Positions 23,883-28,430 are shown, numbered from the stretch's first letter. The stretch is DNA of 32,000 bases from an uncultured Eubacteriales bacterium (GCA_900317375.1 ONGJ01000002.1:23054-55053); one strand, 5' to 3'. The notes: generated from the sequence alone by a model not told the origin. Numbers and translations are program-made.

Positions 23883-26800
23883 TCAGCCCTCCTTTTCCAG
23901 AAAGCGTTTTTCGAAAACAGCAGGTCCCATGAAACGCTTTTCTGCACCGGAGTCGAACTTCACGCTGACCATATACTCGCCATGGCGATCAGGCGCACTT
24001 ATGCCGGTAATGATACCAGGACCGAATTTCTTATGTGTGATTCTCGTTCCTTCATCAAAGACGGAAGTATCAACCGGGACTACCGCCGGCTTTATTTCCG
24101 GCTGCGTGGCTGCGGCAAGTGTAGAGGACACAGGGGGCACGACTGGCTCAGCGGCTTTGGGCATCGGCGGTTCGATTACAGGCTTGGGATATGCCTCTGC
24201 CTTGACTTCAACAGGCTTGCTTGCAGGCGGTTTTGACCGTTTATCGGCTTCTTTGCTATACGATACAACTTTGGATTCACGTTTTTCTTTCTCCTCAGCA
24301 CGCCTTGCCTTTGATGCCATAGACTGTCTCTGCAGCTCGTCCATACGATTATACTCGTCTTTGGAGATTACCGTGCTGAACAGGCCAACGTTCTCATCGT
24401 CAGCGTGTTTGTTGATACCCGTGTATTCCAGGGAGGAGTCTTCATAACGCTTGAAATGATATACTGCGTCGTTCATAACAGCGTCATTGAACACGTTAAG
24501 GGAAACGAGCAATTCAAAATCCTTTATGGTCAAACCAGTCACTTTCCGGAAAAGGGCCGGTTCAAACTGCGTGATGACATCCTTCAGGGACATCTCGCGG
24601 AAATCAGACAAATACATGAAGATCGGAATACGCGTTGCAAACTTGATCAGCTTTTCCTGAATCTGTTTTCTCTTGGATTTGTATTCCTTCTCTTCCTGCG
24701 TCAGCTGCTCTTTTTCTTTCTTGGTCAGTTTTTCTTTGCTCTTGAGCTTCTTTACCGCGTTCGACTTGTTGATGATCGTCTCGATATCTCCGCGCAAAGA
24801 GCGGAACCCTTCAATGTTCTCCAAAGCTTTCAGCGCTTCCGGACTGTTCAGGATTTTTTCCAGTGTCTCGTTATCCACGTTGACCAGCAACGCGGATTCC
24901 CAACGGCGCGCGAGCAATGTGGCTGACGTGCCGGCCATCGTCATATCCAGAATATCCGCAGCGGAAACAGCGGTCATTCTGCTTCCGTCATAGGCCAGAA
25001 CCGGCAGAAAGTTCACGAAATCCGCGACTTTTTTCTCCGGGTTAGATTCCTTCACATCAAGCTTGCAGCTGTAGTCGGCAACCTGGCGGAGAGCTCGGTC
25101 GATAGCAAAGTCAAAAACATAGCATTCCTGCTTCATGATCTCGGTCGTACCGTCTTCATTTTTCATCGTCCATGGCGACTGCACGCGGAACGCAGCCTGG
25201 AAGTATGTTTCAGGTGATGACAGGTTTCGAAGCATGAAGATGCCGGTCCAGGGTTTTACCGTGACACCGGTGGTCAATTTGCCGCAGGAAAGTGTGATCG
25301 ATTTTGTCTCCAATGCAGGATCCATGGATCTCCTGACAGGCGCCAGCGCTGCCAGGCCGATCCCCGCCTCAGCTCCGGCGCACACATTTACCGTGTAGTC
25401 ATGGTAGAACGTATTCGCCCTGTCCGCAAGCAGATTCTTCATGGCATAGCAGGACGCTACACTCGGGAGGAACCAGAATGTATGGGTCAGCAGATTGAGA
25501 AGTCTTGCATCAGAGAAAGGCATGGCCGGCTTGTCCGCGTTGCCTGAAAGGATATCGTCCCGGGTCGCAGACGCATGAGCGCCGCGAATCAGGTTAAGCC
25601 ACTTCTGGACCGATGATTCATGAATAAACTTGGCCTCTGTAACCGGATGTTCTTTCTCTACCGCAGCTTTGAAGAATTCATTGAGATCAAACTCATTGAT
25701 ATCGCTGTTGTAGGCAATGCTGCGAATATCATCCGGCATCTTGTATGTCATCAGAACCATGCGCGGAAGTGCAGCATACGGGTTTTCACCCGGACCTTTC
25801 CAGTTTTCTTTCTCCCGCTGTTCATCGGAATAGGTCCAACTGAAGATCTGATCCTCCATGAACTCGCCATTGTTCAGAGCACGGAAAGGTGTGCCGGACA
25901 GGAAGAGATAATACTTGGTCGTAATCGGCAGGAATGATTCATTATACGCGTTGTCTGCCTCTTCAGCTTTATACTTCTCGATATCCAGCGTATCGTAGGA
26001 GTCTTCATCTTCCATCAGGAAGAGTTTTTTCGCGTTTTCGCGCCATGCGCCAAAATGGTACTCGTCAAAAACCACCAGATCCCAATTTGTGGCGTGAACC
26101 CACTCATTCTTCGCTTTGATTCCGCCAGCATCGTTTGTCCCGAGGTAATCCTGGAAACTGCCGAAACAGACGATCGGGCGCTTCTGATCCAGTTTATCCG
26201 GTGTCTTTCCGGTTTCCATTTCTGTTTTGCGCGAGTAGAATTGCCAGCCGTTGAAATCCACATGGTTCATCAGATCCTCTTCCCAGGCGTCTTCAACCGC
26301 CGGTTTGAAGGTGAGAACGAGAACCTTTTGCATTTTCATGCGTTTGGCAAGCTCATACGTTGCAAAGGTCTTTCCAAAACGCATCTTGCAGTTCCAGAGG
26401 AATTTGGCTGTTTTGGCAGGATTGGCCATGGTTTCCCGGAAGAAATATGCCGCTGTCTGTTTGACGGCCCTCTCCTGCTCAGGCCGCATTTTGAATGTCC
26501 ACGTACGGTTTTCTGCATTGTCGGAATGGGTCTTGACCGCAATAATCGCGGCTTTGACCTGATCCAATGTGCATTTGTAGAACTCGGTCTCTTTTCCGTC
26601 CGCGGAAAGCGCCGGCAGCAGACCGCGCCGTTTCAATGCTTTGTGAACGTCTTTATCCGTGAATGATCCGCCATCCGCATAAAGCGCTGATTCATAATGC
26701 AGAATTTGAAACGGCCTTCCAGTCGCCGGTCTGAGTGTTGGGTACTGCTCCTCAATGCGTTCGATAACAGGCCGGGCTGTATAACCTACTTTCAGATATC

Positions 26801-26894: not shown

Positions 26895-28430
26895 TTACTC
26901 ATCACCTCCAGAAAGCTCCATTGGGCGAATCACAGATTCAATATAATCGATTTCATCTTCTGTTAAATTGTACTTGGAGTATAATGCTTCATCGTTCCAA
27001 GGCTTCTTGAAATCTTGAACCGGAAGGAATATAAACGCGTTTTTAGTAATCATTATCGAAGAAGTAGCCTGCAAAATCATAAATCTTGCAAATTTGGTTT
27101 TAAGATAGTTGTAAAGATTCTCTGCTTCAGTTTGGTTGTCGAAGCTCATTACAACCACATATGTCTCGCTGCATACCTCCTTAGGTCCAAGCAGCTCTAA
27201 GATGGAAAGCACTCGATTCTGCCCGTTTTTATCAGTTTTTCCGCCATGCTCATAAAACACCCGAGATACAATAACATTCCATTTATCGATGTTTTCCTCG
27301 CCAACTGTAACCTTCTCGCGCTGTAAAGGACCGCGTCCACCATTCCACCGAAGTGTCAACTCACCCACTTCATCAGGGCGCGCATAGGTTCTTAACCCAA
27401 ATGGTCTTTGAGGACTTACGTATTTTGCCAAGTTTTCTTCACCACGGCTGAGAATCTTTTCAACGACAGATACTGCAAGGTTAGAGCGGATAAGAATTGG
27501 AAATTGATCTAAATCCCGATAGGCTTCGTTCATCTTACTGCCATCAATGTTCACTATCTTACACTTTCCTGAATACTCTCGATCCCACAGGAAATAACAT
27601 ATTCCGCCAGAAATATCTACGCCTGGAAAACACTCGTCGGAATTTGCATAGTCATAGAGTTCTCTTAAACTCTTGTCTGCTAGCATAGCATTTCTGAATT
27701 TATCTAAGCCGCGCCCGCCTGCATACCAGCGCGATGGAATAATCATAGTCATATAACGAGGATTTAGTTTTTTTGCTTGTTCAATAAACTTATGGTAAAT
27801 GGGAATTGCACTTGCATTATTTCCCCCATCAGAAAGCTGATATGGCGGGTTCGAGATTATTACGTCAAATTTCATGTTCCAAATATCCTCCGGATCTACA
27901 GTATGAATCCATTCATATGCATGTGTTTCAAGATCTGCAGGCCTTTCATATTTTTTTGCGCTTGCTCCACACCAAGAGCACTTTTTATCGTCATCTACAC
28001 CGACCCAATTATGCTGTATACGATGGAACATGATGTTCCCCTGCACATCGTCTTCACCGAAATCCACGATTGAAAACGGGCTGTTTGGGTATTTGCTGCA
28101 ATAGATGCTGCGGCGGGATAGAAGCGAGGTCAGCTCTGTAATCGCAATACCATATAGCTGGTTTTTGAAGATCCAGTCTAAGCATTCCTCAAGCGAATCA
28201 AACTGGTCGCGTTCCCCTGCGATGAATCTTTTTGCAGCTTCACGAAGGAAGACACCACTTTTGCAGGCCGGATCCAGAATCTTGGTTTCTTTATTCCTGA
28301 ATAGCTCCTGCGGCAGCAGATCAAGCATTTTGTTTGCTACTTCAGGCGGTGTAAAGACTTCGTCGTTTGACAGGTCTGCCAGGCAGGAAAGCACGTCCGG
28401 CTTATACAAGCGTTCAAATATGTTCTCCAT
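26895..28430 (-). CDS. Gamma-class N6-adenine DNA methyltransferase (Eco57I-like catalytic domain + TaqI-like C-terminal specificity domain)
   Basis: 511 aa. Motif X is DEVFTPPEVANKML, motif I is ILDPACKSGVFL (Lys where the first Gly of GxG is usual) and motif IV is VIISNPPYQ (aa 194-197). The C-terminus ends in LPVQDF..PWNDEALYSKYNLTEDEIDYIE. It lies 3 nt upstream of the helicase gene and overlaps the YhcG gene by 17 nt. Confidence 0.8.
   Translation of the reverse strand: MENIFERLYKPDVLSCLADLSNDEVFTPPEVANKMLDLLPQELFRNKETKILDPACKSGVFLREAAKRFIAGERDQFDSLEECLDWIFKNQLYGIAITELTSLLSRRSIYCSKYPNSPFSIVDFGEDDVQGNIMFHRIQHNWVGVDDDKKCSWCGASAKKYERPADLETHAYEWIHTVDPEDIWNMKFDVIISNPPYQLSDGGNNASAIPIYHKFIEQAKKLNPRYMTMIIPSRWYAGGRGLDKFRNAMLADKSLRELYDYANSDECFPGVDISGGICYFLWDREYSGKCKIVNIDGSKMNEAYRDLDQFPILIRSNLAVSVVEKILSRGEENLAKYVSPQRPFGLRTYARPDEVGELTLRWNGGRGPLQREKVTVGEENIDKWNVIVSRVFYEHGGKTDKNGQNRVLSILELLGPKEVCSETYVVVMSFDNQTEAENLYNYLKTKFARFMILQATSSIMITKNAFIFLPVQDFKKPWNDEALYSKYNLTEDEIDYIESVIRPMELSGGDE

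Follow-up and report, generated by a model that had tools for sequence, protein, structure and literature searches.

A probable DrdVI-family restriction–modification operon with an embedded YhcG nuclease gene in an uncultured Eubacteriales bacterium

We analysed a 32,000-nt stretch of DNA from an uncultured Eubacteriales bacterium (GCA_900317375.1 ONGJ01000002.1:23054-55053; the whole stretch is referred to as the window and is numbered from its first letter), in which a gene for an adenine methylase is followed by a gene for a large helicase. The locus is probably a restriction–modification (RM) system of the DrdVI family, which is 'Type IIG-like' with a split methylase in REBASE. It consists of a core trio of genes, M1 (227 aa), M2 (511 aa), and R (1002 aa), which form one operon on the minus strand, and an unrelated YhcG nuclease gene lies within this operon. 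The M1·M2 pair would methylate the DNA, and R would restrict unmodified DNA.

A search of plasmid proteins led to plasmid pDrdVI of Deinococcus wulumuqiensis NEB 479, which carries three adjacent genes whose order and strand agree with those of the trio. Their products are annotated as a 'DNA methyltransferase' of 212 aa, an Eco57I methylase domain-containing protein of 539 aa, and a 'DEAD/DEAH box helicase family protein' of 851 aa. Pairwise comparison gave 41% identity for M1 (E 7e-51) and 41% for M2 (E 3e-141), both over the full length, and 54% for R over aa 12-843 (E 0). DrdVI has been described as a fused translocase and restriction endonuclease (REase) with a GIY-YIG domain, and M1.DrdVI and M2.DrdVI were named in the same report (PMC4996451). 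M1-2.DrdVI was cloned in E. coli and is a Type IIG enzyme that forms N6-methyladenine (m6A) in GCAGCC (PMC6430315), and M1-M2.MaeIV of Methanococcus aeolicus, which belongs to the same family, forms m6A in GCACY (PMC10113651). According to another report, endonuclease, methylase, and translocase are permuted among the Type IIG-like systems, some of which have a GIY-YIG domain (PMC4752239). M2 and R of the window both matched one Type IIG model of PADLOC.

Because all three proteins are full-length homologues of the DrdVI trio, the window system is a member of a family that is already catalogued in REBASE, and for two relatives, DrdVI and MaeIV, the methylation specificity is known. An earlier note on this DNA, made from the sequence alone, had proposed an RM-type system in which a T5orf172 (GIY-YIG-type) nuclease is fused to a superfamily 2 (SF2) motor, and this proposal stands. 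The same note regarded the architecture as outside the standard RM types, a view that is largely overturned by the listing of M1.DrdVI, M2.DrdVI, and DrdVI. The window shares with pDrdVI a half-methylase, an Eco57I-type methylase with its recognition region, and a T5orf172 nuclease–translocase fusion. It differs in that R has ~150 extra C-terminal residues (a linker and a Tudor-like domain), that the YhcG gene lies between M1 and M2, and that a 61-aa ribbon-helix-helix (RHH)-like gene follows R.

The open reading frames (ORFs) of M2 (26895..28430, minus strand) and R (23883..26891, minus strand) were found where the earlier note had placed them. A gap of 3 nt separates the stop codon of M2 from the ATG of R, which is preceded by GGAGG. 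The note had described the two ORFs as a pair; the third conserved gene, M1, lies outside the coordinates that it covered. Ribosome-binding sites (RBSs) and overlaps connect M1, YhcG, M2, R, and the 61-aa RHH-like gene. The features of the locus are listed in Table 1.

Gene linkage was evaluated in 80 loci with an R relative, which were obtained from a scan of one genome per species. Of the 64 loci with enough flanking sequence, 63 had an M2 homologue upstream of R and on its strand, and an M1 homologue was present directly upstream of M2 in 59 of 60 loci. Overall, about 60 of 64 loci, from many phyla, retain the gene order M1-M2-R. Clustering of all ORFs of the 80 loci revealed no fourth conserved partner; no other family occurred in more than 10 of the 80 loci, and the most frequent was a helix-turn-helix (HTH) protein found in 10 loci.

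The relationship between R and M2 is also visible in single-chain relatives. An exhaustive search turned up single chains of 1122-1464 aa in which ResIII and Eco57I domains lie behind T5orf172 or MUG113. P0381 (1464 aa) and P0365 (1193 aa) contain T5orf172, ResIII, and Eco57I in one chain, and P0371 (1122 aa) matches MUG113, a related GIY-YIG family, in place of T5orf172. The PADLOC Type IIG model, which has 1359 positions, is matched end to end by the two window proteins: R aa 130-852 correspond to positions 153-868, and M2 aa 17-504 to positions 863-1359. In loci L086, L087, and L088, plasmids of Pediococcus, Lactococcus, and Enterococcus carry M1 followed by a helicase–methylase of 1417-1456 aa with an N-terminal module, and these genes often adjoin resistance or replication genes. 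The N-terminal module of the fused plasmid proteins varies; it is T5orf172-like in some, whereas the Lactococcus module has ~290 aa and gives a weak DUF4145-like match. This variation suggests that nuclease modules have been swapped.

The family is very large and widespread. It comprises at least 8000 clusters at 90% identity, with 1005 representatives at E up to 1e-30, and occurs in a dozen or more phyla, on plasmids as well as in gut phages. The temperate human-gut phage NatCom_35866 (L083, 4670-9901; Ca. Heliusvirales) carries the full M1-M2-R trio, and its R is 57% identical to the window R. Among the three genes, R shows the highest conservation, with 55-65% identity across phyla.

The N-terminal domain of R was assigned by family matches, residue conservation, and modelling. 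T5orf172 (PF10544) matched R aa 20-117 at 2e-7 in the full protein and at 6e-9 when the domain was scanned alone, and the N-terminal domains of all 30 R homologues tested matched the same family (best 3.9e-13). The T5orf172 and MUG113 families of Pfam are members of the GIY-YIG clan, and the NCBI name for R homologues is 'GIY-YIG nuclease family protein'. In an alignment of 24 R sequences, Y20, K34, G36, T38, R45, H83, and E103 are invariant, and Y20, R45, and E103 correspond to the Tyr, Arg, and Glu of the GIY-YIG catalytic set. The AlphaFold model of the domain had a predicted local distance difference test (pLDDT) value of 82. When it was compared with BFVD, predicted viral T5orf172 proteins were returned with TM scores of 0.5-0.65 and E down to 3e-5, and CapR homologues were present among the structural matches. 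The T5orf172 fold of the R N-terminus is thus confirmed, and its tie to the classical GIY-YIG nucleases is suggested by the family classification and the conserved residues. An active T5orf172 nuclease is described in a report on Odn of phage ICP1 (PMC8263062).

The motor part of R contains all the SF2 motifs that the earlier note had read from the sequence, namely GKT at aa 173, DEYH at 276, SGTP at 332, and QAAFRVQ at 565. ResIII (PF04851) matched the helicase part scanned alone at 1.4e-6, over the cut-off, and Pfam scans detected no PD-(D/E)XK domain in R. The AlphaFold model of full-length R was mediocre (pLDDT 61). Foldseek comparison of this model with PDB returned the SF2 double-stranded DNA (dsDNA) translocases Chd1/Snf2, ZorD, LlaBIII, SauUSI, and HsdR with no standout among them, and the model was no closer to Type ISP than to Snf2, ZorD, SauUSI, and HsdR. 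Sequence searches of PDB gave nothing meaningful, whether the query was full-length R, M2, a fused relative found in a lactic acid bacterium, or a profile built on the N-terminal domain. NCBIfam had no family for R, and its matches to M1 and M2 were below threshold only.

The ~430 aa behind the motor, which had been taken for one non-catalytic extension, are not a single unit. A strongly conserved coupler (aa ~670-850) comes first, followed by a low-complexity linker (aa ~851-944) and then by a small beta domain (aa 945-1002). The coupler (aa 671-850) is helical in the model and, with a column conservation of 0.72-0.85, is among the best conserved parts of R. It matches the helicase–methylase linker of the single-chain relatives. 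Because this region equals the linker of the fusions and is highly conserved, it is likely to be the surface on which M1·M2 docks. The tail (aa 851-1002) is missing from homologues of ~863 aa. Its last part (aa 945-1002; window 23886-24059) is a small and confidently modelled beta domain, with pLDDT of 77-89 for aa 945-1000, which many Bacillota homologues possess and versions of ~850 aa including DrdVI lack. This domain gave weak matches below threshold to the RNA-polymerase-binding Tudor domains PcrA_UvrD_tudor (E 0.062) and CarD_TRCF_RID (E 0.14).

The two methylase subunits are of different kinds. M2 contains motif X (DEVFTPP, aa 23), motif I (DPACKSG, aa 53), and motif IV (NPPY, aa 194), and the order X-I-IV is that of the gamma class, as the earlier note had stated. 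The best Pfam family for M2 was Eco57I (PF07669, 2e-33), and MmeI_Mtase scored 21.8 bits, under its cut-off of 27. The note had also placed a TaqI-like specificity domain in M2, for which no Pfam match was obtained in aa 270-511 even at E up to 5. The catalytic part of M2 has a column conservation of 0.73-0.81, whereas aa 300-420 are variable (0.36-0.51), as expected for a diversifying specificity region beside a conserved catalytic domain. M2 aa ~300-420 are regarded as the variable target-recognition region; it has diverged from that of DrdVI, and the target sequence is probably different. M1 belongs to a well-defined family of proteins of 207-240 aa. It has motifs X (GEVFT, aa 15), I (EPACGTGNF, aa 44), II (YGVD, aa 87), and III (GNAL, aa 138), and inspection of its 227 aa found no NPPY motif. 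M1 is regarded as a half-methylase since motifs X, I, II, and III are kept but NPPY is absent.

We regard the following mechanism as the most probable. M1·M2 would be the module that reads the sequence and methylates adenine within a short asymmetric site, by which the host DNA is marked, as has been shown for the two relatives. R would bind M1·M2 through its coupler, as the single-chain fusions suggest. At unmodified sites, R would hydrolyse ATP and move along the DNA, and the N-terminal T5orf172 nuclease would cut, by analogy with Type ISP and Type III enzymes and judging from the set of domains. Functionally, the system would resemble a Type ISP enzyme which is split into subunits, in which a GIY-YIG-type nuclease replaces Mrr and to which a half-methylase subunit is added. 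The catalytic residues are complete: R retains Walker A, DEYH, SGTP, and motif VI in addition to the invariant Y20, R45, and E103.

Several points weigh against restriction by this mechanism. In the papers that we read, no cleavage, translocation, ATPase, or phage-restriction data are given for the DrdVI family, and the DnmA-YeeB-YeeC cluster of B. subtilis gave no defence against three phages or transformation (PMC9973331). M2 alone already holds motifs X, I, and IV, which leaves the need for M1 unexplained. The YhcG insertion could disturb the stoichiometry of the operon. As to the nuclease, the reading of the R N-terminus as GIY-YIG in the earlier note is upheld by the T5orf172 match and the invariant residues and not by known structures: Foldseek comparison of the N-terminal model with PDB gave no significant match, the best being Slx1 with TM scores of 0.40-0.41, and both Slx1 and HIGLE had E above 1. 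Some T5orf172 domains, for example that of CapR as described in one report (PMC8096241), only bind DNA.

As an alternative, the locus may methylate only or be a relic, with M1·M2 serving an epigenetic role and R no longer restricting, as proposed for DnmA-YeeB-YeeC. The absence of a defence phenotype in this analogous methylase, helicase, and T5orf172 cluster of B. subtilis (PMC9973331) fits such a reading. A fragmented and inactive DrdVI-like system in Bibersteinia (PMC4996451) and the interruption of the window operon by a foreign gene, YhcG, point in the same direction. We nevertheless consider this improbable. All three ORFs are full length with intact catalytic residues, the YhcG insertion keeps the start codons and RBSs of both genes, and the conservation of R, which exceeds that of the methylase genes, argues for selection on R itself.

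Still less probable is a non-cutting interference similar to that of BREX, in which R translocates and blocks replication or displaces proteins while T5orf172 acts as a DNA-binding module only. BREX-like relatives among the Type IIG-like systems restrict without cleavage (PMC4752239). In many viral proteins, T5orf172 carries the annotation of a DNA-binding domain, and the CapR homologues among the structural matches, together with the lack of a significant match to solved GIY-YIG nucleases, fit such a role. On the other hand, the residues corresponding to the catalytic Tyr, Arg, and Glu are invariant, the N-terminal module is swapped in the single-chain relatives in the manner of effector nuclease domains of RM enzymes, and the New England Biolabs authors call DrdVI an REase (PMC4996451). 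Least of all do we expect a module serving a mobile element, through addiction or by methylating the DNA of the element to evade host restriction with the helicase aiding its replication: small plasmids and a temperate gut phage do carry the trio, which here lies in a low-GC island beside an excisionase-like gene, but ordinary RM systems are typically found on mobile elements as well, the helicase belongs with the ResIII/Snf2-like translocases and not with the replicative helicases, and a gene scan of the window found no replication or integrase genes in the island.

The DrdVI-family assignment was also compared with other RM and related systems. Type ISP enzymes (LlaGI, LlaBIII) likewise combine a nuclease, an SF2 dsDNA translocase, a coupler, and a gamma-class m6A methylase with one recognition domain; the fused relatives of the window system share this order from N to C terminus, and LlaBIII is among the structural matches of R, whereas the PDB search gave no similarity to LlaBIII at the sequence level. 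The window system differs in its split subunits, in the extra M1, and in its nuclease. Type ISP was rejected since R and M2 are separate ORFs, fused relatives existing elsewhere, and the N-terminal domain is T5orf172, as in all 30 homologues tested, and not the PD-(D/E)XK domain of the Mrr type. Type III enzymes (EcoP15I, Mod2Res) share with the window separate subunits for the methylase and for a ResIII-type helicase–nuclease, and the relatives of the window system also methylate asymmetric sites. However, Mod is of the beta class, whereas the motif order of M2 is that of the gamma class, and Res has a C-terminal PD-(D/E)XK domain, whereas the T5orf172 nuclease of R is N-terminal; Type III was thus rejected as well.

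OspHL35III and DnmA-YeeB-YeeC, which are Type IIG-like, resemble the window system in having an m6A methylase with a single recognition domain, an SF2 translocase, a T5orf172/GIY-YIG nuclease, and a defence-island setting (PMC4752239, PMC9973331). There, an MmeI-family methylase, a translocase, and an endonuclease are separate proteins, whereas in the window the nuclease and translocase are fused, the methylase is of the Eco57I type with MmeI_Mtase below its cut-off, and M1 is present. The locus was therefore not assigned to this type; its separation from YeeB/YeeC follows their published descriptions. MADS, BREX, and Hma were discarded because PADLOC and NCBIfam yielded no match to Hma, and the methylase matches to mad2 and PglX were just weak and partial.

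Table 1. Features of the DrdVI-type locus in the window
Feature	Position	Strand	Basis
Promoter-like site upstream of M1 (TTGACG, 17 nt, TAAAAT)	30419..30447	-	Consensus match only
M1 half-methylase, 227 aa	29618..30301	-	Homology to M1.DrdVI; motifs
Left copy of 11-nt direct repeat CAGCATGGAGA, holding the YhcG start codon	29625..29635	-	Sequence count
YhcG/DUF1016 PD-(D/E)XK nuclease, 405 aa, embedded cargo	28414..29631	-	Pfam, PADLOC
Right copy of 11-nt direct repeat CAGCATGGAGA, holding the M2 start codon	28424..28434	-	Sequence count
M2 gamma-class Eco57I-type N6-adenine methylase, 511 aa	26895..28430	-	Pfam, motifs, homology to M2.DrdVI
R aa 17-120, T5orf172 (GIY-YIG-type) nuclease domain	26532..26843	-	Pfam, alignment, model
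R aa 130-670, SF2 (ResIII-type) dsDNA translocase, motifs I, II, III, VI	24882..26504	-	Pfam, motifs, Foldseek
R aa 671-850, conserved helical coupler	24342..24881	-	PADLOC coverage, column conservation, model
R aa 851-1002, lineage-specific tail: Pro/Lys-rich linker and Tudor-like beta domain	23886..24341	-	Alignment, model, Pfam
61-aa RHH-like gene, candidate regulator	23694..23879	-	RepB-RCR_reg match, conservation in relatives

The gene between M1 and M2 encodes a protein that matched YhcG_C (3e-51) and DUF1016_N (1e-34) in Pfam and the PADLOC candidate PDC-S02 (2e-128). It was absent from the M1-M2 position in related loci, where this junction is almost always a tight overlap, and the uninterrupted junction in L090 (6415-6490), a relative that lacks the insertion, is a single overlap. 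In the window, the YhcG gene is translationally coupled to both of its neighbours. The repeat listed in Table 1 occurs exactly twice in the window, with 0.04 copies expected by chance, and each copy holds the ATG of the downstream gene. The end of the YhcG protein (...QHGEHI) resembles that of M1 (...QHGEY), and the start codons and RBSs of the genes at the M1-M2 junction are preserved. The arrangement looks like a precise, cassette-like insertion which kept the translational coupling.

Extra genes were also observed at the other junction of the trio. Of 70 related loci, 24 (L021, L036, L041, L043, L052, L056, and others) have additional genes, amounting to 0.26-1.3 kb, between M2 and R; these include genes for a ParE toxin, a RES-domain protein, and a Bro-N protein, as well as several unknowns. 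This junction appears to be a hotspot for embedded cargo. Small ORFs between methylase and REase genes have been noted previously (PMC4996451). The 61-aa RHH-like ORF begins 3 nt after R and matched RepB-RCR_reg at E 0.0011. It is conserved at this place in the closest relatives (L089-L092), with 70% identity in L090, and its product may be a controller of the operon. Promoter-like sites were no more numerous in the region than in shuffled sequence.

The operon sits within an island of low GC content (0.38-0.50) between msrA and lysS, and the flanks are at 0.55-0.61. The neighbours in the island are Dodola (DolA, DolB), an excisionase-like HTH gene, a Gabija-like GajA gene, and a UvrD-like gene. 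Dodola is located directly downstream on the same strand (21728-23675), with DolA (DUF6414, PADLOC 3e-78) and the ClpB-like AAA+ protein DolB (PADLOC 2e-129), and the same arrangement is found in contig L089, which is 98% identical. The Tn916-Xis-like HTH gene (21393-21620) is immediately followed by the gene for the GajA-like OLD/TOPRIM ATPase (19764-21392; Gabija, PADLOC 6e-156). The latter overlaps by 74 nt with a 396-aa UvrD-like ORF (18647-19837), which gave only partial matches to UvrD-helicase in Pfam. The presence of Dodola and Gabija next door, and of toxin and candidate defence genes in related operons, supports a role of the trio in defence.

The window locus brings no new principle, and the biochemistry of a translocase with a GIY-YIG-type nuclease and the role of M1 are the under-described side of the family. 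It is conceivable, though we hold this as a tentative and rather doubtful proposal, that the DrdVI family represents a mechanistically distinct class of ATP-dependent restriction, with a dead half-methylase as an obligatory part of M1·M2, a GIY-YIG-type cutting translocase, and cleavage rules unlike those of Type I, ISP, and III. In the same proposal, the C-terminal Tudor-like domain of Bacillota variants such as the window R may link the enzyme with RNA polymerase or some other machine of the host, and the overlapped junctions may serve as landing sites for defence genes (YhcG here; ParE, RES, and Bro-N elsewhere) while the operon stays unbroken.

Automated annotation names R just 'DEAD/DEAH box helicase' or 'GIY-YIG nuclease family protein', and M1 often 'hypothetical'. 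The identification of the trio as an RM system of the DrdVI type corrects how the island is annotated and points to a restriction barrier that is common among Bacillota and Bacteroidota of the gut, which is relevant to phage therapy and to the genetic tractability of these bacteria.

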